A stretch of DNA of 64,000 bases from a virus (IMGVR_UViG_3300033475_000014:12770-76769); one strand, 5' to 3'. Numbered from the stretch's first letter, positions 2,474 to 23,003 are shown. The notes: a model not told the origin generated them from the sequence alone. Program-made: numbers and translations.

Positions 2474-2520
2474 TAAAAAGCCGCTTCGTGCGGCTCTTAC
2501 CTTATGCCATTATTGTACCA
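2474..2520 (-). promoter_or_regulatory. Module A late cassette 1: -10, ATAAGG, terminator
   Basis: TGGTACAAT-6-ATAAGGTAAG-AGCCGC/GCGGCT-TTTT. Confidence 0.75.
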
Positions 2521-2533
2521 TAAAATACAAAAA

Positions 2534-3052
2534 TCAAACGTGAGATGGAACCGAAGTGGCGTCAAGCCCTTCGACGAATATATATGCACGTACATTTACG
2601 GTGAACCCGATGATATTAGGAGGCGAGTTACTTCCTGTATTAGTCCACTGTTTGTCTATATAGAAATTCACATAAGTGCTGTCTACTTCCGCCTCAAACT
2701 TTGCGATTTGTGCTGATGCACCACTCGCGTTACCCAAAAGCCATGCACCCTCCGATCCTAGAACGGTGGCGAAGTTATCAGTAGAAACAAGAAACCACGA
2801 AGATGGCTCGTAAGTATAGCCGTGTTTGTATCGGTAGATAAGAGTCTTCTTTGTTGTCGTCGTTCCAGGACCGCCTGTAGGGTTTGGAGGTTCAGTATTA
2901 AAGAACACCGTAATAATCTGGAAACTATTCTTATTAGTTGAGTCTAGCTTAGCAAATGGATATTTTGTGTTAAACGTGAGGTGTTGCCCCTCAGCTGTCG
3001 TTAAAGAGGTGCTTGGTGCAGATACAGAAATAGGACCGAGATCGTTGCGCAT
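2534..3052 (-). CDS. Virion structural protein, unknown function
   Basis: 172 aa beta-rich, coupled to its upstream neighbour. Confidence 0.5.
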   Translation of the reverse strand: MRNDLGPISVSAPSTSLTTAEGQHLTFNTKYPFAKLDSTNKNSFQIITVFFNTEPPNPTGGPGTTTTKKTLIYRYKHGYTYEPSSWFLVSTDNFATVLGSEGAWLLGNASGASAQIAKFEAEVDSTYVNFYIDKQWTNTGSNSPPNIIGFTVNVRAYIFVEGLDATSVPSHV

Positions 3053-3909
3053 TAGTAAACTATCCTTAAGGTATTAGGAACTACGAGCGGATCTCTCAAA
3101 ACTACTAAGCTGCCAAAGTTATTATTTGGATTAGGAAGAAACGATGCTTGTATACGGGCTTGTGTGAATCCTGAGGCCTTAGCCTGCATGGCGCTTTGGA
3201 TAGCGAATATATACCCGTTCTGCTGAGTGCCTGGGGCCACTGGAGTATAGGTGGTGCCCTGTCCTGGGCCGCCTGTGAAAGCTAATACCCATGGAGTGTA
3301 ATTGGCGGGGTTGTTATATCCGATATATTTAACACCCGATGGAGTGGTGCTAACGTTAGTTACGATAGAAAGCACTGCTGGGGACTGAGCCCGAGAGTGT
3401 AAGATAAAGTCTCGTAGATCGTTTGAAGCAATACTCTTTTGGTATTTAGATACCTTTATCCCTGTGGTTGGGTCGTATGGAGTCGATACTGTAGGGAATT
3501 TAGGAAGCGTATAATCTACGCCAGTCGAAATATCTACGTTATAGCATTTAATACTTACCGTGTAGGTTACAGCGTTATATAAACCTCGGTTAACGAAATA
3601 AATCTTGTTATTATCGAAGGTGAATACTACGTCATTTTGAGCGCTAGATAAGTTACCCGAAGAACCAAAGGTGCGTCCAATACTTACGCCATTTAAAATA
3701 GTCCATCCCATTGTTAAAGGATAAAACCCTAATCCATGCGTAACAGTTGCAGAAACTGAGAACCCATCAGTATAGGGAACTTGTACGACTGTTTCATATG
3801 CGATAGCTAAAGATGGCCAGTCGGAATTAAACACATATTGGTAATCTGCCGCAAATGGGTCGCTCACGCCAATCTGGGTGACCCGTATACCTGCTGAATT
3901 AGAAGCCAC
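3052..3909 (-). CDS. Virion structural protein, unknown function
   Basis: 285 aa beta-rich, within the tail operon. Confidence 0.5.
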   Translation of the reverse strand: MASNSAGIRVTQIGVSDPFAADYQYVFNSDWPSLAIAYETVVQVPYTDGFSVSATVTHGLGFYPLTMGWTILNGVSIGRTFGSSGNLSSAQNDVVFTFDNNKIYFVNRGLYNAVTYTVSIKCYNVDISTGVDYTLPKFPTVSTPYDPTTGIKVSKYQKSIASNDLRDFILHSRAQSPAVLSIVTNVSTTPSGVKYIGYNNPANYTPWVLAFTGGPGQGTTYTPVAPGTQQNGYIFAIQSAMQAKASGFTQARIQASFLPNPNNNFGSLVVLRDPLVVPNTLRIVY

Positions 3910-4228
3910 CTGTCGTACCTATTGAGACACGTATGTTACCCTGTGAGTCGGTAACAGTAGTGCCACCCTGTAAGTTTTGTGTACCTGCCGTAGAGCCTGT
4001 TTGAATCTGTCGAGGAGCCACAGTTTGGTTGGACATCTGACCGTTATAAAGAAGCGACTCCAATGATAAGTAAGGGACTGTTACAAATCCCTCCTGTATT
4101 TCCCCTTCTGATGCTGGCATTATCTGAAAATTAGCGTTACCGAACGTAGAAGAATATGCCATCATCATCATACTAGCGTTAGGGGCATTTGCTGATACTT
4201 GTGATTCAAAACCGCCATCTGTGTACAT
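3899..4228 (-). CDS. Small virion structural protein
   Basis: 109 aa, SD AGGAG upstream, tail operon. Confidence 0.5.
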   Translation of the reverse strand: MYTDGGFESQVSANAPNASMMMMAYSSTFGNANFQIMPASEGEIQEGFVTVPYLSLESLLYNGQMSNQTVAPRQIQTGSTAGTQNLQGGTTVTDSQGNIRVSIGTTGGF

Positions 4229-4236
4229 ATGACCTC

Positions 4237-6294
4237 CTAGTTATCTGGTGCAACTTCTACTTCGCCCATTGTTGGGTCTACTTCTAGTGTAACACCTGTA
4301 AAGTCTGGAGGTGTTGTTAGACCTGATGGCATTGTAAAGTCAAACCCATACGATATTTCATGGAAACGAGTATTTATTTCAATAAGGGCGTTTGTCGCAT
4401 CTGTTGTATTCGTAGCCGCAGCGGTTGTTTTTGTGCCACGATCTAACTTATAGTACGGTGTTACACTTGCTCCTGCTGGCAATCCAGTGAAGCTAACTTT
4501 AGCCCTGTTCGCATACTTTTGCTTAAACCTAGACCCGCCATCGAATATAAGGGATTCCCATGTTCCTGACTGTGCAGCAGTAGATGAGTTATCTAATATA
4601 TCAATCCCATATGTTGTTACGCCGCCTTGTGTATACGCCCACGATGTATACAGGGTGTCGACAAAGTTCTGATTCATACCTATTTGAAGGTTAGTAACAC
4701 CGCTCGTATTGTTATTGAGTAGACCATTAGACATCTGGTAAGAATACCCAAATGAGTTAGGGAATGTCATCTCGACAGCACCCCACGAGTAATTACCATA
4801 ATCCACATTAGGATTTGTGGTAGATGAAGGGTAACCTATAAGAAGAATGTTGTACCTTGAAGTAAACATGTTAGGGTTAACAATAGTGGAATCTGCGGTG
4901 CCGAGATAATCGGTGTTCTGGTAGGCAATTTTCCTCACTTTAATAACTGTCGTTCCGCCGCTCCATGCGTATAGGGAACCTGCTACAGTGAAGTAGACAA
5001 CATTATTTACTGAATAAAGCCCGTATGGTGCCCCCATAGGTATATCAATAATAGATGTAGGCTGAGGAGTAGTACCATCCCAGAAATACAGAGCACCGTC
5101 CTGGAAGTTACGCGAAGAGTTCCTACTGCGACGTTCAACTCCAATAACTAGTTGATTATTGTTAGTGGTTAACCCGCAAACCTCATATCCTGCCTTGAAC
5201 ACGAGCTGATGACGAATCCAATCATTATTCGAGGGATTGTTATCACTAGCAAAGTTATATGTAGATAAGTACTGACCATTCCCTATACAAAGAGCTTGAC
5301 CATTACCCGTCCCCGTGGCCACATTGAATAGTGCAGTAGGATGCCATCCGTTCGTTGTTTGGACAAGCCTGTAAGCACTCCACGTCATATATGCTGACAT
5401 AAAATCGCCTGTGGCGCTTGAGCCGTAAGATACAGGTACAACGGCGATTGTTCCATCGCTTACCGTAGAAGTAAGGTGCCAGTGGTAGTTAGCTGCTCCT
5501 GAAGCGATACCACCACCAACAAGCACGCGAATCTGCGATCCAAATACAAACTCGTTAAGAGCATTAGAAGTGACATTAGCATTTGTAAGGGTCTTGAATG
5601 CTAGTTTGTTGTTCTGCGAATCATGGAGTGTAAGAGTATAGTCACCCGTACCCTTAGAAGCAATGTATACAGAGATGGAGTACCCTGGCTCAATATCTGG
5701 CGAGAACAAGCAATAACTCGAGGGGTCTTCTTTAATTGTTGTCGGTACTGGATAAGTCGCGCCGAGCGTTGCTGCAACAGAGCGAAGTGCACCATCAAAG
5801 TTTCCATCGTCTGGGTTATAAATTTGGGTCGTACCATTATTGATAGATACAGATTGCGCAAAGTTATTACTTCTAAATGCTGGTTGACCTGTATTCCCCG
5901 TCGTTACCTGGCCATACATTGAAACACTCGTCTGACCTGGGATATACAACTGGTCGGTCACCTGGTTATATAGAATGCCCGCAGAGCCTGCCTCAGACAT
6001 CTGTGCAACGTCCGAGATGACGTTCGACGTACTAATACGGTAAATATACCCTCTATCGCCTACCATCCAGCGTACGCCGTTTAAATCCTGGTCTATGGCC
6101 AATGGAAGGTCAGGTAAAGTAGTACTTAGCGCACGAGGGGCAGGAAGCACTGACATCTGGGCAGGGTCTGAACGAAAGTCTAAGTTACGGGATTTATAAA
6201 ATGAATTAGATACACCTAACTTATTGGAAGTCGAGACACCTCCAGTGAAAAAGTTAGTATTGATCTGTATTTTAGAAGAATTTCCTTTTGCCAT
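4237..6294 (-). CDS. Tail tube/stabilisation protein (P22 gp10 / T7 gp12-like)
   Basis: 685 aa beta-propeller-like sequence directly after the adaptor gene. Confidence 0.65.
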   Translation of the reverse strand: MAKGNSSKIQINTNFFTGGVSTSNKLGVSNSFYKSRNLDFRSDPAQMSVLPAPRALSTTLPDLPLAIDQDLNGVRWMVGDRGYIYRISTSNVISDVAQMSEAGSAGILYNQVTDQLYIPGQTSVSMYGQVTTGNTGQPAFRSNNFAQSVSINNGTTQIYNPDDGNFDGALRSVAATLGATYPVPTTIKEDPSSYCLFSPDIEPGYSISVYIASKGTGDYTLTLHDSQNNKLAFKTLTNANVTSNALNEFVFGSQIRVLVGGGIASGAANYHWHLTSTVSDGTIAVVPVSYGSSATGDFMSAYMTWSAYRLVQTTNGWHPTALFNVATGTGNGQALCIGNGQYLSTYNFASDNNPSNNDWIRHQLVFKAGYEVCGLTTNNNQLVIGVERRSRNSSRNFQDGALYFWDGTTPQPTSIIDIPMGAPYGLYSVNNVVYFTVAGSLYAWSGGTTVIKVRKIAYQNTDYLGTADSTIVNPNMFTSRYNILLIGYPSSTTNPNVDYGNYSWGAVEMTFPNSFGYSYQMSNGLLNNNTSGVTNLQIGMNQNFVDTLYTSWAYTQGGVTTYGIDILDNSSTAAQSGTWESLIFDGGSRFKQKYANRAKVSFTGLPAGASVTPYYKLDRGTKTTAAATNTTDATNALIEINTRFHEISYGFDFTMPSGLTTPPDFTGVTLEVDPTMGEVEVAPDN

Positions 6295-6298
6295 ATTT

Positions 6299-7195
6299 TT
6301 AACCCGTTAACTGAGTAGGAGGTATATTGAAAATGTTATACACATCACCAGCCTGCTTAGTAAATACAATACCCGTCGTCTTACTCGAGTAGGTTTCTTG
6401 GTATTGATCGAGTAAATTCTGGAATAGAGACAGGAACTGATTAGCATTCCCTTCGTCTTTTCGCTTTAGATAGAATTGGTAAGCTGCATAGTAAACTAGT
6501 CCCATGTGGTAATCCTCAGGAATGTCTGGACACGCCCCAATAATATACGTAGCACTAGCGTTTGTCTGGTCCTGGTAGTAGTTGGCAAGTGTTAAGTGAG
6601 ATGAATCCTGCACCGAAGCAATTTGATACCAGTTACCGCCCGTCCCATCAGTGACAGAAAGCCACATATTGACCATACTCTGCGTAAAGTTTGCACCACT
6701 GTCTGTGACTGTCTGAGAGCCATTAGATACACTTGCAGTACCTGTGACGTCTGCTAGAGAGTAATCTGGTAATCGTGGCTCATAAGAAATGTTAAGCGTA
6801 CCGATATTATTTGTGGATGGTGCTGGCCATATAGAGACAACATTAAATCCTTTAACAAAGTACATCGTTGGGATGTAGATCGTGACAGCAGGGATAATGT
6901 TAAGCTCGTTCCATTTGTGCTCGCTTGGTACCTCTGTGAGAGGGTATACAATTCCATTAGCAGTGATTGTCACTTCTGTAGTGCGTACAAAATCGGCTGG
7001 TAGCTGATAGTCCTGTTGGCCGTTTACAAGGCTTGCCTGTACTTGCTTACGCGTCCAATAGCGCCTTGCGGCGTTCTTAAACAGCTGTAGCCCCTGTTTG
7101 ACGTCTTGAGCAATATTAGCAGTAGTGACACCATTATCATTCGGTGACCCTACCATGTCGTATGTTCGTGATGCTATTTGATTAAGAGTCAACAT
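6299..7195 (-). CDS. Head-tail adaptor (tail tubular protein A-like)
   Basis: Motif LVNGQQDYQLPADF, C-terminal PEDYHMGLVYYAAY helix, synteny. Confidence 0.65.
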   Translation of the reverse strand: MLTLNQIASRTYDMVGSPNDNGVTTANIAQDVKQGLQLFKNAARRYWTRKQVQASLVNGQQDYQLPADFVRTTEVTITANGIVYPLTEVPSEHKWNELNIIPAVTIYIPTMYFVKGFNVVSIWPAPSTNNIGTLNISYEPRLPDYSLADVTGTASVSNGSQTVTDSGANFTQSMVNMWLSVTDGTGGNWYQIASVQDSSHLTLANYYQDQTNASATYIIGACPDIPEDYHMGLVYYAAYQFYLKRKDEGNANQFLSLFQNLLDQYQETYSSKTTGIVFTKQAGDVYNIFNIPPTQLTG

Positions 7196-8037
7196 TAGGC
7201 GGCACTCGTGAAGTTAGTCCAGGTCGTTGAACCTGTAGTATTGGCATAAAGACGCGTTGACGTTGATGAACCGTCAGTACGTAAGTAGATAGAGCCCTGA
7301 GCGGCGGTGAATGTAGGCGCTCCTGAACCCCAGAAGATACCAAAGTTCGCCGTAGACGATACTTTAATACCTGAAGTTGTCGCGCCCGCCGCTGGGGGGG
7401 CAGTGGAAGTTTGGAGACTTAACTGGCCAGTCGTTGATACGGTAGAGCCAGCTGTGATTGCACCAGATAGTGTAGAAGCACCCGTAACAGATAGTGTACT
7501 AGTAAGAGATAGTGCGCTACTAATCGCACCTGTCGTGACCGAAATACCATACATTGTGCCTGTGTTTGAAGTAGTAAAACCTACAATAGCATCTGCCGAG
7601 ATAGTTGCGTTTGTAATAGTTGGTGCGTTAATCGTTGGGCTTGTAAGCGTCTTATTAGTGAGTGTCTGTGAAGCGGTAAGGGTAACAACCGTGTCGGACA
7701 CGTTAGGTAGTGTGTACATTCTTGTAGTCCCTGCAGTAATCCCTGAAAGCTGGAACTGGGCCTTTTTTGTAGTGTCCCCGTCATCCACTAAAGTAAAAAG
7801 CGTATCTTTAATAGAAAACGTATTGGTATTATCTATTGTTTTGTTTTGGAGAGTCTGGATAGTCGTCGTATCTACAGGTTGTCCTGTCACTCCAAGTAGA
7901 GTTGAACGGTTGATACGTTGTGTCGCTAAAGCAGAATTAGTATAAATAGCTAGATAGTCGTTAGTACCATCAATACTATTAGCTGTAGGGAGTACAGTAG
8001 CTCCTGTAGCAGTTCCACCGAGGATTACATTGCCCAT
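7195..8037 (-). CDS. Tail fibre-like protein
   Basis: Thr/Ser-rich, QTLTNKTLTSPTI repeat typical of phage fibres; start moved to the ATG overlapping the upstream stop. Confidence 0.6.
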   Translation of the reverse strand: MGNVILGGTATGATVLPTANSIDGTNDYLAIYTNSALATQRINRSTLLGVTGQPVDTTTIQTLQNKTIDNTNTFSIKDTLFTLVDDGDTTKKAQFQLSGITAGTTRMYTLPNVSDTVVTLTASQTLTNKTLTSPTINAPTITNATISADAIVGFTTSNTGTMYGISVTTGAISSALSLTSTLSVTGASTLSGAITAGSTVSTTGQLSLQTSTAPPAAGATTSGIKVSSTANFGIFWGSGAPTFTAAQGSIYLRTDGSSTSTRLYANTTGSTTWTNFTSAA

Positions 8038-8216
8038 TAGACCTGGCTCCAAGCTGTCGCATATTTACCGATAACATAATACGCATTAGGGATGATAAAG
8101 TTCAAAGAGTTATCTACAATAGTATTTCCGAGGTTATCTTGAAGATATAGCCCATTTTGAGGCAAAACATAGCCGAACCCTGATTGTGGTGTCCAATATG
8201 TTGGATTCTTGCTCAT
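8037..8216 (-). CDS. 59-aa hypothetical protein (below ORF-track cutoff)
   Basis: GGAGG SD, MSKNPTYWTPQSGFG...AWSQV*, TAATG-coupled to the next gene. Confidence 0.6.
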   Translation of the reverse strand: MSKNPTYWTPQSGFGYVLPQNGLYLQDNLGNTIVDNSLNFIIPNAYYVIGKYATAWSQV

Positions 8217-8224
8217 AATACCTC

Positions 8225-8626
8225 CTAAACAATATCGAAGTAAAAACTTAACGTTGAAGAGCCTGTATTTGCTTTAAGATAGAGTACGCTGGTTAGGGCT
8301 ACATCCACGCTTATCTGCACCCCAGTGGGGATAGTGAAATAGTGAGCAGCTACAGTATTATCTGATTCGCTAATGTTGACGGTGTTCGTTGTTGCTAGAA
8401 AATTAACTCGTACTGCATTAAGCGGGATAGTGAGAGTAGTAACGGCCGAGTTAGACACAGTAGCTGGAGACACGACAGGAGTTCCCGAAATGTCCACTGT
8501 TTGCGGTCCGTTAGCAACTACGCCAGTTAGCGCATTACGGCTTGCATCATTACGGAGGTTGCCAAATAGGTTCTCTTGCCCTGGCTCTACAGGTGCTGCT
8601 TTCTTTGTGAATGTATATGTAGCCAT
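8225..8626 (-). CDS. Small beta-rich virion protein
   Basis: 133 aa, AGGAG SD. Confidence 0.5.
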   Translation of the reverse strand: MATYTFTKKAAPVEPGQENLFGNLRNDASRNALTGVVANGPQTVDISGTPVVSPATVSNSAVTTLTIPLNAVRVNFLATTNTVNISESDNTVAAHYFTIPTGVQISVDVALTSVLYLKANTGSSTLSFYFDIV

Positions 8627-8637
8627 ATTATCTCCTA

Positions 8638-8682
8638 ATAAAATAGCCGCAGTAACGGCTGCGGCCTTATATGGTTATTATA
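8638..8682 (-). promoter_or_regulatory. Module A late cassette 2
   Basis: TATAAT-6-ATAAG-GCCGCAG/CTGCGGC-TATTTT. Confidence 0.75.
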
Positions 8683-8708
8683 AGTTAGTTTTCGAGTTAA
8701 ATCTAGTA

Positions 8709-9335: not shown

Positions 9336-9344
9336 TTCAAATCC

Positions 9345-10370
9345 TTACATTGTTATACTTGATAAACCAGTAACTGACGAAATACCAGATATATTAGTAA
9401 CGTTTGCAGGTTCCGTAGTTTTTACTTTGGCACCATACGAGCCGTTAACGCCATCAAGTCCGTTTATATAACCAGTTCCACCTCTTCCACTTGCTGCGCC
9501 CGTTAAGGTATAAGTACCGCTATCGCTAAGGGTTGCATAAACCAAGTATACGTTCCCTGCATTTCCTCCGCCCCCTCCCCCCCCGCCAGAACCTGATACG
9601 GCTAGAGCAGAGCTTGTACCGCCATTTCCTCCATTAGAACCAGCAGTTCCAGAGGTTATTATTGTCCCACTGATCGTAATGGAAGGAGCCTTAAGAACAA
9701 CATGTACACCAGGCTTCCCTGAATTGCCTCCTGCTCCACCACCACCGCCTGAAATGGTTGTTGTCCCATTCCCTGCTCCGTTAGAGCCATTATTCCCGTA
9801 GGCATTAGCACCCGCACCAGATGTGACTGACCCAGATAGACTAGCGGCTGCTCCACTACCGCCAGCAGATGTTCCTCCGTTATTACCAGCGACATCTGAT
9901 GTAGAAGCTGTTACGGCTGCCCCTCCGTTACCGCTAGGCGTACCACCGTTACCGCCGTTTCCTCCCGTGACGTTGTGTGTGCCTCCACCTTGTGTGCCGC
10001 CTCCCCCTCCTCCGCCGCCAAAGCCACTCCCTTGAGCACCACCTGTAGATAGGTATAGATTAGCTGCACCAGCTCCTCCATTACCTACTGATGGTGACGT
10101 GTATGTTACCCCGTCTATGGTAGCTGATCCACTACTCTGTCCGGCGGTTATTTTATTAGATACATCTATTGTTCCGCTAATTGTAATACTTGTCGTAGCG
10201 AGAATATACAAAACAGAACCGCTTGTGGCTGTAGTACTGAGAGTGGCTCCAACAGAAACACTTACTGTGGTGTACTGATATTTATTGTCTAGTGACAGAT
10301 TCGTAGTACCCGAAGTCACACTTAACGAACCGTCTGAGCCATTACCGAATATGGGATTAGGAGTAGCCAT
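9345..10370 (-). CDS. Glycine-rich tail fibre/spike protein
   Basis: FGNGSDG start and GGGGGGG/GGNGG tracts; likely start MATPNPIFG coupled to the upstream stop. Confidence 0.6.
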   Translation of the reverse strand: MATPNPIFGNGSDGSLSVTSGTTNLSLDNKYQYTTVSVSVGATLSTTATSGSVLYILATTSITISGTIDVSNKITAGQSSGSATIDGVTYTSPSVGNGGAGAANLYLSTGGAQGSGFGGGGGGGGTQGGGTHNVTGGNGGNGGTPSGNGGAAVTASTSDVAGNNGGTSAGGSGAAASLSGSVTSGAGANAYGNNGSNGAGNGTTTISGGGGGAGGNSGKPGVHVVLKAPSITISGTIITSGTAGSNGGNGGTSSALAVSGSGGGGGGGGNAGNVYLVYATLSDSGTYTLTGAASGRGGTGYINGLDGVNGSYGAKVKTTEPANVTNISGISSVTGLSSITM

Positions 10371-12371: not shown

Positions 12372-12416
12372 AACAAAAAGAGCCTCTGTCGGCTCTTACC
12401 TTATGCCGATATTATA
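12372..12416 (-). promoter_or_regulatory. Module A late cassette 3
   Basis: TATAAT-6-ATAAGGT-AAGAGCC/GGCTCTT-TTTG. Confidence 0.75.
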
Positions 12417-13275
12417 CGTCATTTTCATAATCAATTCCAGCTAAACCGTATGCCCCGCGTAGCCTTTGTTCTTTTTGGTTTAACTCGAGATCACGCTTTA
12501 TGAATGCACTCTCTTTGATACGTACCGACCGCTCTTTAGCATCTAGGGCCTGCTCTCTCATAGACTGTGCATTTTTGAGATTATCTAACTCTACAATCTT
12601 TTCATCTAGCTGTTTATCGAGCTCACGGAGTTTGTCTTTAAACTCTTCTACTTTAGATTCATACCCGTCTTCAAGCACGTTCATCTTTGCTTCTATCTTA
12701 CGTACCTCTTCAACGAGCATCAACTTGTCTTGGCCGAGACGAATAATATCTGCTGAGAGCTTATTCTTTTCCAGCTGAATATTATCTGCTTCTTTGCGGA
12801 ACTCTTGGAGGGTAATATTCCACTCGCTGATAGTATTTTCAGATAGTTTTTCTTGCTCTTCTCGGTATTCTTTGGTTTCTCGGATTTGTTCCTTTAAATC
12901 TGCTAGTTCTTGACGTTTATTACGGATAGAGGCATTGACCTGCGTCTCTTTGGTCTTTAGTTCATCTAATTTGTCGTTCTGAGCAGTGATAGAATGCCTA
13001 ACGACCTGTTCTTGAGCCTTTAGCGAGTCAATAGTAACCTGTGCTTTATCCGCCAGATCATCTACTTCCTGCCTACGCGCTTCTAAAATAGACTCTTCGG
13101 CCGTAATTTGCTTACGAAGTACATCTAACTTAGTTTCGGCATCATCAAATACCTTCTGACGCTGCTGTAGGGCTTTTTCGCGCTCTAAAATATTCTCACG
13201 AGCATTAAGTACCCGCTCTTTTTCAGCGAGTTCTCTAGACTTCTTTGCGAGGTCGGCCTGGTCGCCTTTGCTCAT
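12412..13275 (-). CDS. Long coiled-coil protein
   Basis: 287 aa heptad-rich E/K/L sequence. Confidence 0.6.
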   Translation of the reverse strand: MSKGDQADLAKKSRELAEKERVLNARENILEREKALQQRQKVFDDAETKLDVLRKQITAEESILEARRQEVDDLADKAQVTIDSLKAQEQVVRHSITAQNDKLDELKTKETQVNASIRNKRQELADLKEQIRETKEYREEQEKLSENTISEWNITLQEFRKEADNIQLEKNKLSADIIRLGQDKLMLVEEVRKIEAKMNVLEDGYESKVEEFKDKLRELDKQLDEKIVELDNLKNAQSMREQALDAKERSVRIKESAFIKRDLELNQKEQRLRGAYGLAGIDYENDV

Positions 13276-13753: not shown

Positions 13754-13935
13754 TATTTCTTCTCCTTTTTAAAGTTCTCAATAAGTTCTGATACTAAAGA
13801 ATGGGCACCCTGTATTTTAACCTGTTCAGTGTTAATCTCGTTAAGGCGCTTGGTTAATCCTTGCTTCTCACTCTCAAGGGAATTAAAAGCATTTTCAAGC
13901 TCTGACTTCTTATCGTTTAGTTGCTTGAGTTCCAT
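13753..13935 (-). CDS. Small coiled-coil protein
   Basis: 60 aa, coupled ORF. Confidence 0.5.
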   Translation of the reverse strand: MELKQLNDKKSELENAFNSLESEKQGLTKRLNEINTEQVKIQGAHSLVSELIENFKKEKK

Positions 13936-14009
13936 ATTGGTTTAACAATACCATATATTTGTAAAAGAAAATAGCCCCTGGTTTAGAGGCTATTTTACTG
14001 TGTATTTTG

Positions 14010-14558: not shown

Positions 14559-14568
14559 ATTAGCCTCC

Positions 14569-15297: not shown

Positions 15298-15317
15298 AGT
15301 TTTTCTCCTTATATTTT

Positions 15318-15390
15318 GTAAAAAAATAGACCCGTTACCGGATCTATTCCTTATAGAGTGTATTGTAATTCACTTGCTGGCATAAATCAA
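15318..15390 (-). promoter_or_regulatory. Module A late cassette 4
   Basis: TTGATT-17-TACAAT-7-ATAAGG-AATAGATCCG/CGGGTCTATT-TTTTT. Confidence 0.75.
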
Positions 15391-15391
15391 A

Positions 15392-15946: not shown

Positions 15947-15991
15947 GGGTCTAGTATATCACTAGACCCATAGTAATCCAAGTGAGCTGCA

Positions 15992-17080: not shown

Positions 17081-17110
17081 ATTTTATTCCTTATTGCTCC
17101 TTATATTTAC

Positions 17111-17184
17111 TATAAAAAATAAGAGAGCCCTGCGGCTCTCTTACCTTTATACACTCATTATACAACGAGAGGTAGAAGCGTCAA
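17111..17184 (-). promoter_or_regulatory. Module A late cassette 5 (before the capsid gene)
   Basis: TTGACG-16-TATAAT-6-ATAAAGGT-AAGAGAGCC/GGCTCTCTT-ATTTTTT. Confidence 0.75.
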
Positions 17185-17189
17185 CTATA

Positions 17190-17357
17190 TTATTTTTTGA
17201 TCTTCTCGAATACGTCCTTGATAAAATGCTGCGCTTCCTTGTACGTTGACGGGATTGTAGTGTTCCTCAGTTCCTTATCGAGCTTCTCTGCTTCCTTAGC
17301 AGTAAGCTGTCCAAGGTGCTCTAGCGTTGCGATAAATAGTGTGATGTAGTTTTCCAT
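17190..17357 (-). CDS. 55-aa hypothetical protein
   Basis: MENYITLFIATLEHLG...; coupled to the scaffold stop. Confidence 0.55.
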   Translation of the reverse strand: MENYITLFIATLEHLGQLTAKEAEKLDKELRNTTIPSTYKEAQHFIKDVFEKIKK

Positions 17358-18307
17358 TAAATTCTCCCCATCTTATATAGCTGATAAACACGGTTTAAGT
17401 CTGTTCCCGGAGGCAGTGGTCGGGCCTTAGTTTCAGGCGTAGTGCTTTGTGGTGCACCTACCTTAGAAGCTACTTTCTCCCTTTGTGCCTGGTTCTCAGA
17501 TTTAACCTCTTCCTTTTTAATAGCTTCCTTTTGTTCTTTAGAAGCCTCTTTAGGATGCAGTGCGTAGTAGCGATATGCTGCGTCCTCATATGATACTCGG
17601 TACATACGGCCTGAACCATTATACTTAGTGAAATAGTCATCATTGATCTTCTTGTAGAAATCATAAATCTTATTAGATTCGAGTACAGCTGGGTCATCAT
17701 TAAAGCGCGGGTCGTTCACTTCGTACTTGAACTTAGGAAGCATGCCAGCCTTCTGTAGGCTTTTAACATCGTTCTGAATATCTACAGCTTCGAGGGCTTC
17801 GAAGTCTGCTTGGGAACGTTGAGCCTCTTCTGTACGGTACTTCTGTAGCAAGTCGCGCGCGTTGACTTCCTGAGCCGCGAGTGCTGCGTTAAATGCTAGC
17901 TCCGCTCGCTTAGAAGCAAACTCAAAGTCGTCTGGAAGTTCTTCTAGACGTTTAACTGTGAATACTTTATCTTTACCCTCTTCACCCTGGTGCCCCATTA
18001 CCTGGATGGTTGGGAGGTTATCAATAATGTACTTCTGCCAGTCTGGGAGCGGTTCTAGCTTTGTCTCTTCTGGAATCTCTTCAAGTTCTACCTCTTCTGG
18101 CACTTCCTCTTGGGGTTCTTCAACGGGAATTTCTTCTTCTTTTTTAGGATCTTCCTTAGCAGGTTCTTCTGGTACGGCCTTGAGGAGTTGATCTACTTGA
18201 CTCTTTAGAGGACGATTAGGGTTGAGTTTGAAACCCTTGTCCTCCTTGTTCTCTTCCTGCTGGACTTCCTCTGCTACCTCTTTGTTTGGTAATACTTCCT
18301 CTTCCAT
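17357..18307 (-). CDS. Capsid scaffolding protein (module A)
   Basis: Very acidic N-terminus, located between portal and capsid genes. Confidence 0.7.
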   Translation of the reverse strand: MEEEVLPNKEVAEEVQQEENKEDKGFKLNPNRPLKSQVDQLLKAVPEEPAKEDPKKEEEIPVEEPQEEVPEEVELEEIPEETKLEPLPDWQKYIIDNLPTIQVMGHQGEEGKDKVFTVKRLEELPDDFEFASKRAELAFNAALAAQEVNARDLLQKYRTEEAQRSQADFEALEAVDIQNDVKSLQKAGMLPKFKYEVNDPRFNDDPAVLESNKIYDFYKKINDDYFTKYNGSGRMYRVSYEDAAYRYYALHPKEASKEQKEAIKKEEVKSENQAQREKVASKVGAPQSTTPETKARPLPPGTDLNRVYQLYKMGRI

Positions 18308-18322
18308 TCTGTTCCTTCCTTA

Positions 18323-20506
18323 TTAAACTGGTGGTAACTGAGCTGGGTTGCCAAGGTTAACGCTAGGCTGAGCTGGCGCGCCGTTTGGTGTGACTGGCGG
18401 AGCTGTAGGGCCAGGTGTTGGCTGTTGCATAATAGCCTGCATTGGTGATGGTTGTCCAGGGGCTTGACCCACATTACCCATAGGCGGTTGTGGCATCTGT
18501 GGAGCTGGTGGCATACCCATTGGCATCGGAGGTTGTACCTGCTGTAAACCAGTAGCAAGTACTTGTGGTGGTAACGGTCGTTCTTGCTCTGGAGATTGAG
18601 ACATCTGGTGAAGCTCCTGTTGAAGCTGGAACCTATCTATAGCCTTGTTAACGAATCTAATTGTATTGCTTTGAACCTTGGCCTTGGATTTCATAAACTC
18701 GTCAGAGATAAGGAGCTTGCGCATCTGCTCGATATACTCGTGAGTTGGGTCTTCCCTGTCTTCTGGAGTTTGGCTGTTCATTAGCTGTGTCCAGTCAACC
18801 ACTGCATCACTGTTTGCGTCGTTGATAGCAATATCCATAGCAAGTTGAGTAGGGTCTGACTTCCACTTCATAAAGTTATCGTAAAGCTGCTGCGGATCGT
18901 CCATATGAAGCAGTTTGTAGCCGTCGTATGGGCTGATAACACCTAACTTGAGTAAGTTTACAGCTACAGACTCTTGGCGGCTCTTATCGAACGGCAGTGT
19001 GGTACCTGACTGAACTTTAACGCTCATTCCCTTCTCAACCTTATCTCGGTGCATCTCAATGAAGTCGAATTTACCATCTCCGCCGTTTACTGTGGCATAG
19101 TGAGACTCTGTATACCAAACCGTTATCATCTGTGCGAGGAACTGGAAGTATTTACCCATTCCGTAATCAACTGAGCGGACGATCTTATCCTGACGACCAG
19201 AAGCTTGGTTTTTAATCATCATCGCTTCTGATGCTGTCTCGGTCTTGTTTTCGTCTGATCCTGTGAACTGTGATGGCGTACCAAGTAGATTGTGAATAGC
19301 CTGCTTTGCGTTAGACACTTCTCCAATAAGCTGAGCCGATACCATTTGAGGGTTGAGCTGTGCGACTACATCAGTAACGCGTTGGTTAGGCTTTGTTTTT
19401 ACTAGGAGAAGCTGGTTAGGGTCGCCTGTGAAGTTTTGTGCATCATCTTTAGTCATTGCGTGAGCATCAATAACCTTGAACCCATTAGCCGTGCCGATAT
19501 TATCAAGTAACTGTCGGCCTAGCTTATTAAGAATGTCCTGCTGTGGGATAGCCTGTTCTAGGGCGTTAGTGCGGTCGATCCAGTGTGAGCCATCATTCGT
19601 GAGGTTGAATGGAATAAATGGCTTCATAGGAGCGTCTAGGAAGTTCTCACCCTCGTTGTCGTAGAGCCAGTTAATGTTACGAGACTTATCTAATACGATG
19701 TTATCCACGTACCACGCGACTGCTTCTTGTGGCTTATTATCTGTGTCGTAGTAAGTAAACCATACCTCTCGGTAGGCTACCTCAGCGCTCATATTGCGTG
19801 AACCTTTACGCTTGATAGAGAAGTGGTCGAGAATGGTTTGTTCTTTATCTGGGAACTTAGCGCATAAGCCCTCTACAGAGTCCTTTAACACGTGACAGAT
19901 AAAGCGTGGATTCTCACCAAGCTTAGCATTCTTGTCTATAATTACGTGATTGGGGTCAACAACCTCTGGGACAATCTCACCATTCTTTCCGTAAAGCGGG
20001 TCCCACCTTAGCTTAAGTAGTCCAACGAACTTACCCACCATGTTGTATACAGCGCCCTCTAGCTTACGTGGTAGCTCAAACTTCTCTGAATGAGAGTGCA
20101 TATATTTCTCTAGGTTTTGAGCAAGCACCATTGAGTCTGTTTTATCTGAGGCTGGATAAACTTCGGCATTAGGCGTCTGAGCGCATACATACGCTAGTAT
20201 GGCATCCATACCCACAAAGACTTCATTATCAATGTATGGGGTTTGGTGGCGATATAGTTTGTTTTCCTCAAGGTGTGCACCTTGAAGCATCTGGGCGTTC
20301 TTTAATCGCTTGTTCTTGAGATTAAAATGGTTAATGTCATTATAGTAGTCACGAGAGTCTTCAATGATTGTGTGTAGATTCTTAATGATATAGTCATCTT
20401 CGAGCTCGAGACTGACTGATGGAAGTAAATACAGCTCACCGTCTTTGTTAGCTAGATCATCTAGGTTGTAATCGCTCTGTGGCTGTGCGAACAATTGGGG
20501 GTTAAT
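18323..20506 (-). CDS. Portal protein (module A), probable ATT start
   Basis: About 727 aa after terL, Pro/Gln-rich tail; AGGAG is 7 nt before ATT (20506) but 19 nt before the track's TTG. Confidence 0.8.
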   Translation of the reverse strand: MNPQLFAQPQSDYNLDDLANKDGELYLLPSVSLELEDDYIIKNLHTIIEDSRDYYNDINHFNLKNKRLKNAQMLQGAHLEENKLYRHQTPYIDNEVFVGMDAILAYVCAQTPNAEVYPASDKTDSMVLAQNLEKYMHSHSEKFELPRKLEGAVYNMVGKFVGLLKLRWDPLYGKNGEIVPEVVDPNHVIIDKNAKLGENPRFICHVLKDSVEGLCAKFPDKEQTILDHFSIKRKGSRNMSAEVAYREVWFTYYDTDNKPQEAVAWYVDNIVLDKSRNINWLYDNEGENFLDAPMKPFIPFNLTNDGSHWIDRTNALEQAIPQQDILNKLGRQLLDNIGTANGFKVIDAHAMTKDDAQNFTGDPNQLLLVKTKPNQRVTDVVAQLNPQMVSAQLIGEVSNAKQAIHNLLGTPSQFTGSDENKTETASEAMMIKNQASGRQDKIVRSVDYGMGKYFQFLAQMITVWYTESHYATVNGGDGKFDFIEMHRDKVEKGMSVKVQSGTTLPFDKSRQESVAVNLLKLGVISPYDGYKLLHMDDPQQLYDNFMKWKSDPTQLAMDIAINDANSDAVVDWTQLMNSQTPEDREDPTHEYIEQMRKLLISDEFMKSKAKVQSNTIRFVNKAIDRFQLQQELHQMSQSPEQERPLPPQVLATGLQQVQPPMPMGMPPAPQMPQPPMGNVGQAPGQPSPMQAIMQQPTPGPTAPPVTPNGAPAQPSVNLGNPAQLPPV

Positions 20507-20519
20507 GGCTGTTCTCCTC

Positions 20520-20577
20520 TATAAAATAAGCCGCACGAATATGTACGGCTTAACTACCTTATAGTTGAATTGTACCA
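20520..20577 (-). promoter_or_regulatory. Module A late cassette 6 (before the portal gene)
   Basis: TGGTACAAT-6-ATAAGGTAG-AAGCCGTAC/GTGCGGCTT-ATTTT. Confidence 0.75.
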
Positions 20578-20579
20578 TA

Positions 20580-20798
20580 TTACTGGAAATAAAAGTTGTA
20601 TACTGTCTCACAACCGTGGCACTTTTTCTGCACTAACCCCATGTTTTGTGGTATCTCAAACTCTGGGTAGCCCTCACCTTGCCATACTGCTACTACATCT
20701 CTATTAACGTGGAACAAACGCGCGCGACATCGCATGCAGAAGTACGGCACGGCGTTCGCTAGGTTGCTCTTAGTTAAGATAATACTCCACGTCCACAT
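20580..20798 (-). CDS. Zinc-ribbon protein (Mu Com-like)
   Basis: CMRC...CHGC; sits between terL and portal. Confidence 0.55.
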   Translation of the reverse strand: MWTWSIILTKSNLANAVPYFCMRCRARLFHVNRDVVAVWQGEGYPEFEIPQNMGLVQKKCHGCETVYNFYFQ

Positions 20799-22420
20799 TA
20801 CATACTCCTCCAATCTCTGTCACCCGCTCCACTTAATAGCTGTTGTATGTCTATACCCGTCCCTTCAATAGTACCATCACTTTTACCAACCCACTCAACT
20901 TTGGCTCTCTCTCCCTCTGGAGGGTTTCTATCAATAAACCCATTAGCTATCTCGTATTCTCCCTTGTAGTTTACTGCAAAGAACTCTGTCTGTGTCCTAT
21001 GGTGAGATGTCCAGTCGTGTACAGGCTTTGTAATAGGAGTTACCGACTGGCTTGTCTCTTCACGCTTAGGGTAGTGAGCGTTCTTTATACATTCAATCCA
21101 CCACTTGACGCCTGGGGTGTCATTAGCTACTAGATGAGTGAATAAGCGTCTTGTGGCATCCCTACGGTGTACCCAGTCGTTTTCCATATCATTTACTTGT
21201 ACATCTATTCCGTGGTCTTCAAGTATCTTGTATGGGCTCACACCTGATTCGATATGTCGCTGCTTACCTGACGGGTCACCAAAGATAATGTCCTTACGCC
21301 ATTTCTTGGCCTTTTCAATGAATTCTAGTTGTTTGTCTGTGTATACAAAGTTATGCTGGCCTCCACACCAAGGGCACTCAGGTACGTTCACGCAGTCCTC
21401 TAGCCCTAAGAACGGGAAGTACCATTCCATAATGTGATCTGATTCCTCATGTGCATCTATCATAGCTACCCAATCACTATTCTTAATAGGCTGGTAATAT
21501 CCTAACGATACAGCATCTAGCCCTAAGTCCATCGCTACGTACATAGGAAGCTCCTCATCATATTCAACCAGCTGAATAGGAACGCTGGCAATCTCTGGGT
21601 ATGGCCTACCAGTCTTTGAGTATTCCCAACTAATATCTATTTCGTGTAAGACTTCTTCTTCACTGCGCCTAGACTTCTCATACTCGTACCACTTCTGATC
21701 CTTATGTGGGTGAAGTGACCAGTGCCACGTCCTCACTAAAACCTTCTCAGAGAAGCGTAACGTCTTAGCGTAGGATGGTTCATCAGGCGGTGTGGTAACC
21801 CCGTGACGGCAGTGTGTGGCGTCACCTGCGGCCGTCCATGAGCTTCTAGCGTCAGGCCAGAAACCTATCTCGTCAAAGAATACATCCTTATAGCGACCAC
21901 CACGAGAGAAGTTCTTGTTTGAGCTTTCGCCTTTAAGTACATTACCGTTCTCTGGGTTTACTAGCTTCATGTATGTTCGATGCTTCTTAGTATCAAAGCC
22001 CTCCGGTAGAATGAGTGGGTCTTTTATGTTCTGTATGAAATAATCCAGCTTCCCATATAAAGAAGCCAGAGTACCATCGTCTACATACTCTTCTTTACGT
22101 GAACCTAAAAGTCCTTGATACCCTTCTTCAAACAGCCAAAACCAAAAACGTACAGCCAACGCAAGCCACGATACCCCCATATCCCTAGACTTCTCATCCA
22201 GTACGTCATAGCCCTCTCTAATAGCCTTTACAAGCCCTACAACGTATTCTTTCTGGAAATCATATAGCTTAAAGGGCAGGTTGTGTGGGTAAGCCTCAGG
22301 ACGTGGGTCAAACGTGTAGAGATAGTGCTCGATAAAGAACACACAATCTTTACGTGCCTGACGCCTATCAGACTCATCAAGGAGCTCAATCAGATAGTTT
22401 CTGTCGCTCAAGTTCGTCAT
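20798..22420 (-). CDS. terL: Terminase large subunit (module A)
   Basis: EKSRDMGVSW Walker A-like motif, FFDEIGF Walker B, nuclease AMDLG and FGDPSG. Confidence 0.9.
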   Translation of the reverse strand: MTNLSDRNYLIELLDESDRRQARKDCVFFIEHYLYTFDPRPEAYPHNLPFKLYDFQKEYVVGLVKAIREGYDVLDEKSRDMGVSWLALAVRFWFWLFEEGYQGLLGSRKEEYVDDGTLASLYGKLDYFIQNIKDPLILPEGFDTKKHRTYMKLVNPENGNVLKGESSNKNFSRGGRYKDVFFDEIGFWPDARSSWTAAGDATHCRHGVTTPPDEPSYAKTLRFSEKVLVRTWHWSLHPHKDQKWYEYEKSRRSEEEVLHEIDISWEYSKTGRPYPEIASVPIQLVEYDEELPMYVAMDLGLDAVSLGYYQPIKNSDWVAMIDAHEESDHIMEWYFPFLGLEDCVNVPECPWCGGQHNFVYTDKQLEFIEKAKKWRKDIIFGDPSGKQRHIESGVSPYKILEDHGIDVQVNDMENDWVHRRDATRRLFTHLVANDTPGVKWWIECIKNAHYPKREETSQSVTPITKPVHDWTSHHRTQTEFFAVNYKGEYEIANGFIDRNPPEGERAKVEWVGKSDGTIEGTGIDIQQLLSGAGDRDWRSM

Positions 22421-22799
22421 TTATACGGCTACGCAGTTCTTCATCTGTAAGTTGCTTTGCTTTATTAATACTTTCACCAGCACTTGTAATATCTGTTTCA
22501 GTCTTTTCAACATATCCATGCTTACCACTGAGTATAAGCTTAGCAATAGTAGCGTTATACTTTCCTAGGATAGAGTTTTGTATCAGCTTTTGCCCTTGGG
22601 CTTGACGTAATTCCTCAACGATGTCGGAAAACTCTTTATTATCTTTTTCCCATTGGTATATTGTGTCTCTGTTAATATGTAACGCAAGTGCGAGCCCCTC
22701 TATTGTTGGTAAGAGGGTATGGATACTCACGTCTATCTCTTTCAAGTATTTACGAGCTTCCTCAATTAGTTCTGGTGTAAGCTTTGTAGGTCTAGCCAT
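22386..22799 (-). CDS. terS: Terminase small subunit (module A)
   Basis: MARPTKLTPEL...PTIEGLALAL HTH, directly upstream of terL. Confidence 0.8.
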   Translation of the reverse strand: MARPTKLTPELIEEARKYLKEIDVSIHTLLPTIEGLALALHINRDTIYQWEKDNKEFSDIVEELRQAQGQKLIQNSILGKYNATIAKLILSGKHGYVEKTETDITSAGESINKAKQLTDEELRSRINDELERQKLSD

Positions 22800-23003
22800 A
22801 TCTATCATCAATATAGCACAATAACCAGAATTAACTGGCCTATTTATCATTTAATTGTAGTATCACGATGACCTGTCACAAGCTTTCAAGTAGTAGCACA
22901 CGTGTTAAGGGTGAATACTTCTATTTTAGCATAAAGAAAGCCCCCTACAGTATGTAGAGGACAATCAGTCGTGACCACGAAGGTACTTATATTATAGCAC
23001 TAT

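Follow-up and report, generated by a model that had tools for sequence, protein, structure and literature searches.

The question raised by this locus is why a phage should place what looks like an intrinsic terminator directly after the promoters of its late genes. In the window (the whole stretch of 64,000 nucleotides analysed), reading the minus strand together with a regular-expression scan gave six exact copies of TAYAAT-N6/7-ATAA(A)GG followed by a GC hairpin and a T-run, with -10 hexamers at 2517, 8682, 12416, 15367 (N7), 17162 (ATAAAGG) and 20574; the six minus-strand cassettes described in the sequence-only reading were thus found as exact matches. All six are intergenic, their hairpins range from -11 to -21 kcal/mol, and their T-runs (4-7 T) end at +30 to +40. 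The copies are as follows.

20521..20577, minus strand, portal-gene cassette: TGg + TACAAT 20574-20569, ATAAGG 20562-20557, AGCCG 20550-20546; putative terminator, 10-bp hairpin 20552-20527, T-run 20526-20523
17112..17184, minus strand, major capsid gene cassette: TTGACG 17184-17179, 16 nt, TATAAT 17162-17157, ATAAAGG 17150-17144; AGCCG 17137-17133, hairpin 17143-17120, T-run 17119-17114
15319..15370, minus strand, 242-aa gene cassette: TACAAT 15367-15362, N7, ATAAGG 15354-15349; ATCCG variant 15343-15339, hairpin, T7 15326-15320
12372..12419, minus strand, 464-aa gene cassette: TATAAT 12416-12411 (includes the upstream stop codon), ATAAGG 12404-12399; AGCCG 12394-12390, hairpin, T-run 12379-12375
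8640..8685, minus strand, 133-aa gene cassette: TATAAT 8682-8677, ATAAGG 8670-8665, AGCCG 8660-8656 (stem/loop junction); putative terminator, hairpin 8666-8645, T-run 8643-8640
2472..2520, minus strand, 309-aa gene cassette: TGg + TACAAT 2517-2512, ATAAGG 2505-2500; AGCCG 2495-2491, hairpin, T-run 2479-2475

Beyond the window there is one more exact copy, the seventh (9607-9590 of the genome), and the whole 76.8-kb record contains no further ones; the scan of the plus strand and of the window from 23 to 64 kb returned zero copies. When up to one mismatch was allowed, the N6 pattern gave 5 matches against 0.82 +/- 0.83 expected, a count reached in 0 of 100 shuffles. The pattern is real, and stronger than had been stated before. 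In all seven copies the hairpin and T-run occupy +7 to +40 after the predicted +1 (the predicted hairpin start lies 5-12 nt 3' of it), while the Shine-Dalgarno (SD) sequence and start codon follow 5-40 nt past the T-run, outside the hairpin. The short RNA predicted from this layout is 30-40 nt long, which corrects the 35-45 nt given earlier. A cassette precedes each of seven virion and lysis gene blocks (portal, capsid, tail blocks, lysis). The copy at 9607 occupies a divergent junction beside a plus-strand chaperonin block, and for this reason the lysis block appears to have no other promoter nearby; the putative terminator still follows this copy directly.

Positional conservation in relatives was looked at: about 25 related metagenomic phages carry the cassette at corresponding gene junctions, and their genomes, of 35-38 kb, have 5-7 copies each, all on one strand. 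Of the named relatives, a Saccharibacteria (TM7) phage is the nearest. The capsid cassette is kept in 17 relatives, its -35, -10, AGCC and T-run being invariant or nearly so; the portal-gene cassette occupies the same junction, with changed stems, in L006-L012 and L023; the 464-aa gene cassette has orthologous copies in L006-L009, L011, L024 and L075, and the 309-aa gene cassette has an ortholog in G001 at 25062. The relatives carry no tyrosine integrase, and the framing of the earlier reading in terms of lysogen versus induction is doubtful for this reason. The integrase and the C2H2 gene (24962) are part of a second, separate phage of 39.8 kb, which an exact 127-bp repeat connects to this one.

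The promoter part of the unit is well conserved: none of the aligned cassettes departs from the T, A and T of TAnnnT (33/33), 15/17 relatives have TTGAC 17 bp from TATAAT at the capsid gene, and the extended -10 (TGn) is kept before the portal gene. In L024/L028 that portal junction has a promoter immediately 5' of the ATG and no hairpin. The sequence supports promoters of the sigma-70/sigma-A type that would be activator-independent; the near-consensus capsid promoter requires no activator. The hairpins are more stable than shuffled sequences (mean z -3.7), the stems covary at orthologous sites (CCGCAG/CTGCGG versus CTCCAG/CTGGAG in cassette 8682, with AGCCG unchanged), the T-runs of the capsid cassette are invariant in the relatives, and the terminator score is positive in 6/7 copies. 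Hairpins that resemble intrinsic terminators, placed directly after promoters at conserved junctions, are thereby supported at the bioinformatics level.

Two other junctions serve for comparison.

22822..22859, minus strand, loose copy before terS: TACAAT, N6, ATAAATAGG, 4-bp stem
13936..14009, minus strand, plain terminator without the promoter/AAGG unit, kept in relatives

The looser copy reported before terS (22859-22825) does exist; however, it is not a gated cassette, having a 4-bp stem, no AAGG/AGCC tag, no convincing terminator and a terminator score of about -39; six of the other seven copies score from +0.4 to +32.

What is conserved between promoter and T-run extends beyond the transcript start. 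AGCC(G/A) follows AAGG at 4-6 nt in all 39 distinct copies, whatever the register of the hairpin (A, G, C and C in 39, 38, 39 and 39 of the 39, respectively), and GAGCC is found in 29/39. The bases it pairs with are not constant (C 28, T 7, A.C mismatches), and in 8 copies its CC stays unpaired. Five cassettes of record G004 have the same AAGGCCTGAGCCA but differ in the register in which the hairpin closes. Since AGCC(G/A) is kept whatever the register, the conserved part appears to be a leader of about 15 nt that forms the 5' half of the terminator, (A/G)TAAGG-N4-6-AGCC(G/A). Judging from the aligned copies, this leader is constrained for its own sake, and the constraint is unequal between the two hairpin arms. 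The conserved element pointed out before at the predicted transcript start is under selection, but it is longer than ATAAGG and overlaps the 5' arm of the terminator; neither is the hairpin wholly different each time, as AGCC(G/A) in or beside the 5' arm is common to all copies. The -10-like form TAAGGT (TAnnnT) is present in only 20/33 copies, and the pause-like spacing GG-N8-CG fits only the cassettes with a 4-5 nt spacer.

We presume the following mechanism. Host RNA polymerase with the main sigma factor would start at the A of (A/G)TAAGG, 6-7 nt after TAnnnT, and transcribe first the leader AAGG-N4-6-AGCC(G/A); since this is the 5' half of an intrinsic terminator, the polymerase would by default stop after 30-40 nt. 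The same hairpin would double as the end point for transcripts from the upstream block. Each gene block (portal, capsid, tail blocks, lysis) would then be expressed only if termination at its own cassette is suppressed, and the conserved leader would be the handle for this suppression. The most likely route is a factor on the nascent AAGG...AGCC RNA that prevents the hairpin from closing, in the manner of site-specific RNA-binding antiterminators or of Mu Com, which opens a hairpin; a less likely one is that the leader serves as a promoter-proximal pause site for loading an antiterminator, as at lambda pR'. We hold about evenly balanced the chances that the late promoters are gated by their own terminators and opened through the leader; the interpretation of each cassette as a gated promoter, already offered in the sequence-only reading, is partly supported. 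The sequences show how the cassette is built, how well it is conserved and how unequally its two hairpin arms are constrained; from them we infer where transcription starts (at ATAAGG), that it terminates at the hairpin, that read-through is regulated, and which factor is involved. The order of the elements is relevant here: with the promoter before the terminator the output of a block is (1-T)(upstream+P), so this order never beats the usual one, terminator and then promoter, unless T is regulated.

The rival that deserves most attention supposes constitutive punctuation with no dedicated factor: the hairpin and T-run form a partly efficient terminator that closes the message arriving from upstream and makes it more stable, the promoter saves space by lying within the last part of the preceding gene, and the purine-rich, SD-like 5' end with its hairpin acts as a 5' stabiliser of the new message, by analogy with those known in Bacillus. 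Indeed, -35 regions and upstream stop codons overlap the cassette promoters, and AAGG is not only SD-like but is used as the actual ribosome-binding site in L021, so the leader could work in mRNA stability or translation. At the portal junction of L015-L017 the promoter and AAAGG are accompanied by a hairpin that lacks a T-run. The leader is conserved while the early genes of the relatives are not, which fits recognition by host machinery, and in relatives without an integrase tight silencing may be unneeded. On the other hand, GC stems and 4-7 U suggest strong terminators, the strongest promoter, that of the capsid gene, is set against the most stable hairpin (-21 kcal/mol), and stability and termination alone leave unexplained an AGCC that is invariant despite mismatches and varied registers. 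A variant of this explanation, in which a newly started polymerase terminates less readily than one arriving from afar, would need a mechanism rendering the just-initiated polymerase immune to a terminator at +30-40, and we know of none. We consider punctuation unlikely, though not negligible. A phage protein bound to DNA at the asymmetric +1 to +15 and blocking initiation or elongation, on the model of the 'stoperators' of mycobacteriophage L5, would account for an asymmetric, intergenic, many-copy motif oriented with transcription; however, the variable AAGG-AGCC spacing of 4-6 nt is ill-suited to recognition of double-stranded DNA, the motif is conserved where the early and regulatory genes of the relatives are unrelated, and the hairpin and T-run would be superfluous. 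We give such an operator very little credence.

Another explanation regards the cassettes mainly as short patches of homology for module exchange between related phages, similar to PeSLs, the composite promoter/terminator motifs documented to mediate shuffling in T4-like phages (PMC2839356, PMC4122927). Homology of the phage (G000) with L007 and L008 begins exactly at the -10 of cassette 8682, other homology blocks stop at hairpins, the cassette at 15367 falls within a segment replaced in L006 and L007, and the leaders are homogenised in G004. Nevertheless, what the copies have in common, a mere 6+6+5 bases or so among spacers and loops that are unrelated, falls short of what homologous recombination requires; the cassettes stand at conserved core junctions (portal, capsid) rather than beside orphan genes; and module borders are expected at gene borders regardless. 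Recombination could be a side effect, and as the function we find it very improbable. Even less probable is the proposal that the product is the RNA itself, that is, abundant trans-acting small RNAs of 30-40 nt with a 5' AUAAGG seed, a terminator hairpin and a U tail. A single-stranded 5' tag with a terminator hairpin is the minimal shape of a small RNA, and StxS, a by-product of pR'-tR', is a functional one (PMC7547250); but every copy stands directly before a gene block, with SD and start codon 5-40 nt past the T-run, seven genes for almost one 6-nt seed are hard to justify, and the search for complementary targets on the coding strand gave only one weak site, at about 23511.

If the late promoters are gated through their leader, the factor has to be looked for. 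No Q, sigma, NusG-like or other antiterminator gene was matched among about 45 ORFs compared with Pfam, some also with PHROGs, which agrees with the earlier statement that no Q-like gene is recognisable; nor did the scanned ORFs contain CAT/PRD, ANTAR, HutP or TRAP RNA-binding antiterminator domains. Three candidates had been named, of which the HTH (23580) and C2H2 (24962) proteins are absent from the whole records of five relatives; the third, the zinc ribbon at 20580, is present in 5/5.

20580..20813, minus strand, 77-aa zinc-ribbon gene (CMRC...CHGC), last gene of the terS-terL block

The gene, whose end is 3 nt upstream of the first gated cassette, occurs in every relative with a portal identity of at least 44%, and its family is limited to 35 clusters, on contigs no longer than 41.4 kb. 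It is the sole phage protein that travels with the cassettes and a candidate reader of the leader; this co-occurrence counts as one evolutionary event, being within one clade. Pfam, PDB and fold comparison gave no match for the protein (structure model, mean pLDDT 67), PF10122 (the Com family) matched none of 16 homologues at E<=1, and hhalign against Mu Com aligned 11 columns at a probability of 8.5%, with the resemblance confined to the first knuckle; in these comparisons no relation to Com or to any RNA-binding fold was detectable. A packaging protein, too, might well be encoded where this gene lies, between terL and portal. Our proposal that the zinc ribbon, made from the ungated terS-terL block, binds the leader AAGG-N4-6-AGCCR and holds the hairpin open at seven late promoters is accordingly tentative, and we rate it as possible rather than probable. 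If true, it would represent a feed-forward, site-by-site cascade of RNA-binding antitermination for late genes, with a mechanism like that of Mu Com and transcription as the target; the system may be one branch of a wider undescribed class, 'zinc ribbon + (G)AGCC terminator leader'.

The timing of late genes is understood for a handful of model phages (Q, late sigma factors, Ogr, C, Lpa, RinA). Here a whole family of uncultured phages without known late regulators repeats a compact unit before its late blocks, which points to an undescribed way that may switch on late genes block by block; we found no published description of this promoter-leader-terminator unit in the literature. If the leader does control read-through, about 60 bp of DNA, perhaps together with a 77-aa protein, make up a regulatory module that is new and very small, and the cassette might find use as a portable gate for tight genetic control. 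Terminators behind promoters, which tend to be set aside as annotation oddities, would then prove capable of acting as the main switch in the life cycle of a phage.

Among known systems, the lambdoid pR'-tR'/Q switch (lambda, 21, 82, Stx phages) likewise has an activator-independent promoter, an intrinsic terminator and then the late genes, with a conserved element at +1 to +6 of the transcript and a short RNA as the default product, predicted in our case and given by lambda/Stx pR'-tR', where a host-type promoter runs into the terminator (PMC7547250). However, there are seven units per genome here rather than one, the terminator lies at +30-40 rather than about +190-260, the conserved element overlaps its 5' arm, the cassettes share no sequence between -35 and -10, where Q binds, and no Q-family protein was found among the ORFs scanned. 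Pseudomonas AlpA, a small prophage-type protein, lets polymerase through intrinsic terminators just downstream of two promoters (PMC7969949); unlike the motif in our transcribed leader, its site is on DNA, between -35 and -10, where it binds as a winged-helix protein, and no AlpA-like gene was seen in the phage. PeSLs also combine a repeated intergenic sigma-70-like promoter with a terminator stem-loop at module borders (PMC2839356, PMC4122927), but their stem-loop is upstream of or within the promoter, so that transcripts escape (PMC2839356), and they are early promoters found around orphan genes in plastic regions, whereas here the hairpin comes after +1 at core late-gene junctions. HK022 put and Tn916 canT (PMC11658703) belong to mobile elements that use terminators as insulators and need antitermination for expression; these are long structured RNAs, processive from one site, in contrast to a 15-nt leader at every terminator.

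In BglG/LicT-RAT, HutP, ANTAR and Com-mom, as here, a conserved RNA site overlaps or adjoins the hairpin to be kept open, although CAT/PRD, ANTAR, HutP and Com-family domains are absent among the scanned ORFs. Com is, like our candidate, a tiny zinc-finger protein encoded beside its target. It acts on translation of one gene, whereas the targets here would be U-tract terminators at seven promoters, whose hairpins do not hide the ribosome-binding site (SD and start codon lie past the T-run in 7/7 copies). The motif at which Com opens an RNA hairpin, GAG(N)2CC (PMC6483171), resembles the (G)AGCC tag, and exact GAGNNCC is present only in some cassettes, e.g., GAGAGCC at 17139-17133.

The record is 76,769 bp long and the window comprises its bases 12770-76769. 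The sequence-only reading had placed six units of promoter, AUAAGG start and immediate terminator in front of late-gene blocks; all six are present in late-gene gaps on the minus strand, each in the order TAYAAT, N6, ATAAGG, GC-rich hairpin, T-run, ribosome-binding site, start codon. They are given by the first base of the -10 hexamer, followed by the gene blocks:

2517, minus strand: cassette
8682, minus strand: cassette
12416, minus strand: cassette
15367, minus strand: cassette, N7 spacing as against N6 in the other five
17162, minus strand: cassette, ATAAAGG in place of ATAAGG
20574, minus strand: cassette
Block of terS (GP3_package), terL and the 77-aa zinc-ribbon ORF
Block of the portal gene and two more genes
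Block of the major capsid gene and a 184-aa gene
Several tail/virion blocks
Lysis block with an SH3-domain endolysin, beyond the window

A seventh exact copy lies at genome 9607-9590, 3.2 kb outside the left edge of the window; there are no copies on the plus strand and none in window 23-64 kb. With up to one mismatch allowed, the N6 pattern gives 5 matches against 0.82 expected, a number that none of 100 shuffles reaches. If the A of ATAAGG is assumed to be the start, the T-runs end at +30 to +40. The looser copy proposed before terS (22859-22825) does have a -10 hexamer and an A-rich start; its stem, however, is 4 bp, AAGG and AGCC are missing, and its terminator score is about -39, whereas six of the seven other copies score +0.4 to +32 (these scores, from a d'Aubenton-Carafa-type formula applied to modern energy parameters, serve for ranking only). 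Rfam gave no match within the window.

On one side of the copy at genome 9607 stands the lysis block, and on the other a block in the opposite orientation (a 94-aa ORF, then a Cpn60-like chaperonin); the cassette occupies the 67 bp that separate them. Since there are no co-directional genes for 2.7 kb upstream, the lysis genes have, judging by gene order, no nearby promoter but this cassette, whose transcripts would nevertheless meet the putative terminator of the cassette itself. We regard it as the clearest sign that the terminator would gate its own promoter and not merely end an upstream message. The plus-strand block itself (genome 9615-12357, window -3154 to -412, the locus L078) lies within the minus-strand late region and encodes the 94-aa protein and a 507-aa chaperonin of the Cpn60/TCP-1 type; a phage-borne chaperonin operon is arranged likewise in the TM7 phage DolZOral124_53_65.

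A search of IMG/VR with the portal protein returned 31 loci of 28-98% identity. The positional conservation that the sequence-only reading proposed to look for is observed: every relative with a portal protein at least about 50% identical has cassettes, and these occupy the same four to six junctions. At the capsid junction, the elements retained by 17 relatives (72-99% identical in the capsid protein) are TTGAC, a spacer of about 17 bp, TAnnnT, an A-rich start of the AAGG type, AGCC, the hairpin and the T-run; the columns of these elements are invariant or nearly so, whereas spacers, loops and stems vary. At the portal junction, the -10 hexamer is always preceded by TGn (extended -10). When the entire records of five relatives, 34-38 kb in length, were scanned (one has terminal repeats and is rated 100% complete), AAGG-N4-6-AGCCR had 5-7 matches on the coding strand against 0-2 on the opposite strand and 0-3 for a reversed control pattern; one of these matches, at 1946 of the relative G001, is no cassette and falls within coding sequence. 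Scanning all IMG/VR with the pattern confined the full motif to the family of cassette phages, barring two chance-like matches.

Some relatives carry reduced forms. In the loci L024 and L028 the extended -10 promoter stands alone, immediately preceding the portal ATG; L021 reads TACAAT-N5-ATAAGGAATATTTATG, its box being the true ribosome-binding site; and L015-L017 have promoter, AAAGG and hairpin with the T-run missing. Considering these variants together with the conservation in the relatives, we infer that the promoters at these junctions are old and real, and that the terminator that follows them is a trait of the subfamily. The closest named phage, TM7 phage DolZOral124_53_65, has a portal protein 41% and a capsid protein 51% identical and the same opposite-strand Cpn60 block; it lacks the cassette. 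Before the capsid gene of outgroup phages, whose portal proteins are about 30% identical, stands another leader, AGAGGTCAC...AGACCC, once per locus. The module had no Megablast match among 50,697 phage records, and the GTDB genomes gave none when scanned with the capsid protein and with a 21-base cassette pattern.

The AUAAGG start element of the sequence-only reading is indeed conserved, but that reading missed an invariant AGCC(G/A) downstream of it. AGCC follows AAGG after 4-6 nt (33 cassettes aligned, with anchor parsing), and the next base is G in 32 of 39 cases or A in 6 of 39. Among the 39 distinct cassettes its A, G, C and C are present in 39, 38, 39 and 39 copies; the sole departure is ATCCG at 15343. 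The pairing is less constant: opposite the G of AGCC stands C in 28 copies, T in seven and no partner in three. In hairpins of the capsid type GAGCC is retained opposite GGCCC, one of the pairs being an A.C mismatch, and in those of the 8682 type CC(G) sits in the loop. In the record G004 an identical 13-mer, AAGGCCTGAGCCA, is common to five cassettes and is paired in different registers (GAGCCA/TGGCTC in four copies, GCCTGAG/CTCAGGC in the fifth). These structures are per-sequence folds anchored on AGCC, which replaced RNAalifold on the sequence-based alignment A3, where the 3' arms were misaligned and no structure was obtained. Because AGCC is constant while its partners and registers vary, the 5' leader sequence is selected for its own sake, and the 3' arm merely follows it.

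Two other readings of the leader were discarded. A boxA/boxB (nut) arrangement was rejected on the variable loops and on the conserved arm being the 5' one; a ribosome stalled at the upstream stop and blocking the hairpin was rejected on the stop-to-hairpin distance, which varies widely and is mostly too long. Looking for a trans RNA that could pair with the leader turned up one weak, non-conserved, non-coding site near 23511 and no other. It falls in a 225-nt gene-free gap (23355-23579, minus strand) between the HTH gene and the gene for a 116-aa protein; the gap contains the anti-Shine-Dalgarno-like CACCTCCT and is not conserved in relatives. The portal cassette (20562-20521) reads AAGGUAG..AGCCGUA..GUGCGGCU. 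It may be similar to the two strands, 5' and 3', of helix 45 in the 3'-terminal part of 16S rRNA of the Gram-positive type (AAGGUAGCCGUA...GUGCGGCU), perhaps by coincidence.

The -10 and -35 evidence makes these putative promoters host-type, and the capsid promoter, being near consensus, would need no activator. With the terminator behind the promoter, the promoter's own transcripts would be attenuated as much as the upstream ones, so this order should never beat the usual one of terminator, then promoter, unless termination is regulated. From this argument and the stand-alone lysis cassette, we propose that the switch would be regulated read-through, with the conserved leader as its handle. 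The rival that we find doubtful, though still the most serious, is constitutive punctuation with a 5' stabiliser, which accounts for the SD-like box, the compaction and the missing conserved regulator; it leaves the register-independent AGCC unaccounted for, as well as a strong terminator behind the strongest promoter. Recombination patches of the PeSL type are far less probable: the homology with the loci L007 and L008 begins exactly at 8682 and other blocks finish at hairpins, but the identity shared between copies is too short, and PeSL stem-loops precede the transcription start (PMC2839356), a position which also counts against this reading. We give slightly less credence still to the short RNAs being the product, and equally little to DNA operators or 'stoperators'; a 4-6 nt gap between two short blocks would suit recognition of single-stranded RNA better than of duplex DNA.

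Regulated read-through could work in two ways. In sub-mechanism (a) a factor would bind the nascent AAGG...AGCC RNA and prevent hairpin closure. Proteins of the BglG/LicT type prevent hairpin closure at RAT sites and so resemble this arrangement in keeping a hairpin open; Mu Com, which opens a hairpin in the mom mRNA, is a similar case. SELEX with the zinc-finger domain of a Com homologue from Haemophilus sputorum yielded GAG(N)2CC (PMC6483171), a motif similar to the (G)AGCC tag of the cassettes. In sub-mechanism (b) polymerase would pause at the leader, close to the promoter, and an antiterminator would load there in the manner of lambda pR'. We counted toward (b) the -10-like TAAGGT present in 20 of 33 copies. 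The consensus elemental pause has the form GG-N8-C|G, and the leader fits it where the spacer is 4-5 nt, with the pause at about +14-17. As neither pause feature is universal, we tentatively rate (a) above (b). The parts are familiar (pR'-tR'/Q, AlpA, Com, PeSL, canT), and the combination is not; our literature search found no paper on promoter-leader-terminator units iterated before each late block, nor on the cassette leader.

The record probably combines two phages, each of about 37-40 kb, that the assembler fused at a 127-mer common to both, considering that its last bases (63874-64000) repeat 24090-24216 exactly over 127 bp and that it has two terminase genes (20798-22420 and 57284-58474). 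Phage A (genome 1 to about 36985) bears the cassettes; early genes of its own, of the Rad52 type, lie at its extreme left. The second phage, which corresponds to the stretch between the repeats, is a 39,784-bp circle with another head-tail module, an integrase (32420-33262), ERF, NinG and the C2H2 gene. No PF00589 integrase was found in relatives of phage A; the purpose of the gating may thus be to time the passage from early to late genes in a phage that does not integrate, not to silence a lysogen.

As to the factor that would read the leader, no Q-like gene had been recognised in the sequence-only reading, and our scans agree: Pfam (about 45 ORFs) and PHROGs (some), on both sides of the module, gave no Q, sigma, RinA/ArpU, NusG or AlpA-type gene. 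Early genes are not common to the relatives that share the leader. Among the candidates proposed earlier, the HTH protein (23580-24113) and the C2H2 protein (24962-25156) have no match in the entire records of the five relatives, whereas all five encode the 77-aa zinc ribbon, as does each relative locus that spans the site. In the ESM Atlas the 177-aa HTH protein has generic HTH neighbours only, and the 116-aa protein has none. In the zinc ribbon 35 residues separate two CxxC knuckles, and the protein ends in a conserved ...FY(F/Y)Q. Just 35 clusters of its family occur in a set of 5.8 billion proteins, and none of the contigs that carry them exceeds 41.4 kb; a 99%-identical copy sits on a 41-kb contig, which is probably a clean copy of phage A. 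It has no Pfam match, a profile search against PDB sequences was empty, and Foldseek against PDB (structure model of pLDDT 67) gave no match with E<1. Its likeness to Mu Com is in the first knuckle only (CMRCRARLF vs CKNCNKLLF; hhalign probability 8.5%), and membership in Com/PF10122 is not detectable.

The zinc-ribbon gene is the last of the sole block with an ungated promoter and ends 3 nt before the first gated cassette. Under regulated read-through, expression would then advance by feed-forward, beginning with the packaging genes and the factor and continuing with portal, capsid, tail and lysis. That the zinc ribbon may read the leader is suggested by their co-occurrence, which is confined to one clade; a packaging role suits the position of its gene equally well, and the reader may possibly be a host factor, including the 30S subunit on the SD-like AAGG.

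Several further observations concern both phages. In phage A, the portal gene appears to start at ATT (20506-20504, minus strand) and the 464-aa gene at ATA (12366-12364, minus strand), each 6 nt after a good AGGAG and in frames that align with ATG starts in L008/L011 (MNPQ..., M/I-x-NWT...); these appear to be conserved non-canonical start codons. A 9-bp GC hairpin without a T-run directly follows the capsid gene (15991-15947, minus strand), and the homology blocks with relatives all end there. At 14009-13936 (minus strand), after the 182-aa gene, there is a conserved terminator without the promoter/AAGG unit, then a possible promoter of the leaderless type. The 177-aa protein (23580-24113) and a 187-aa protein (63334-63897) are identical in their first 8 and last 10 residues and 29% identical between, and the HTH is in the former only; we take the gene to be a mosaic at the genome junction. 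The second phage has a three-copy intergenic motif, TTTACCAATAA(A)C, on the minus strand (56624-56608, 37119-37104 and about 46264-46250) with a TAATAT/TATAAT-like hexamer 6-8 nt downstream; these are possibly its late promoters. At about 46250-46230 there is a hairpin with TATAAT in its loop.
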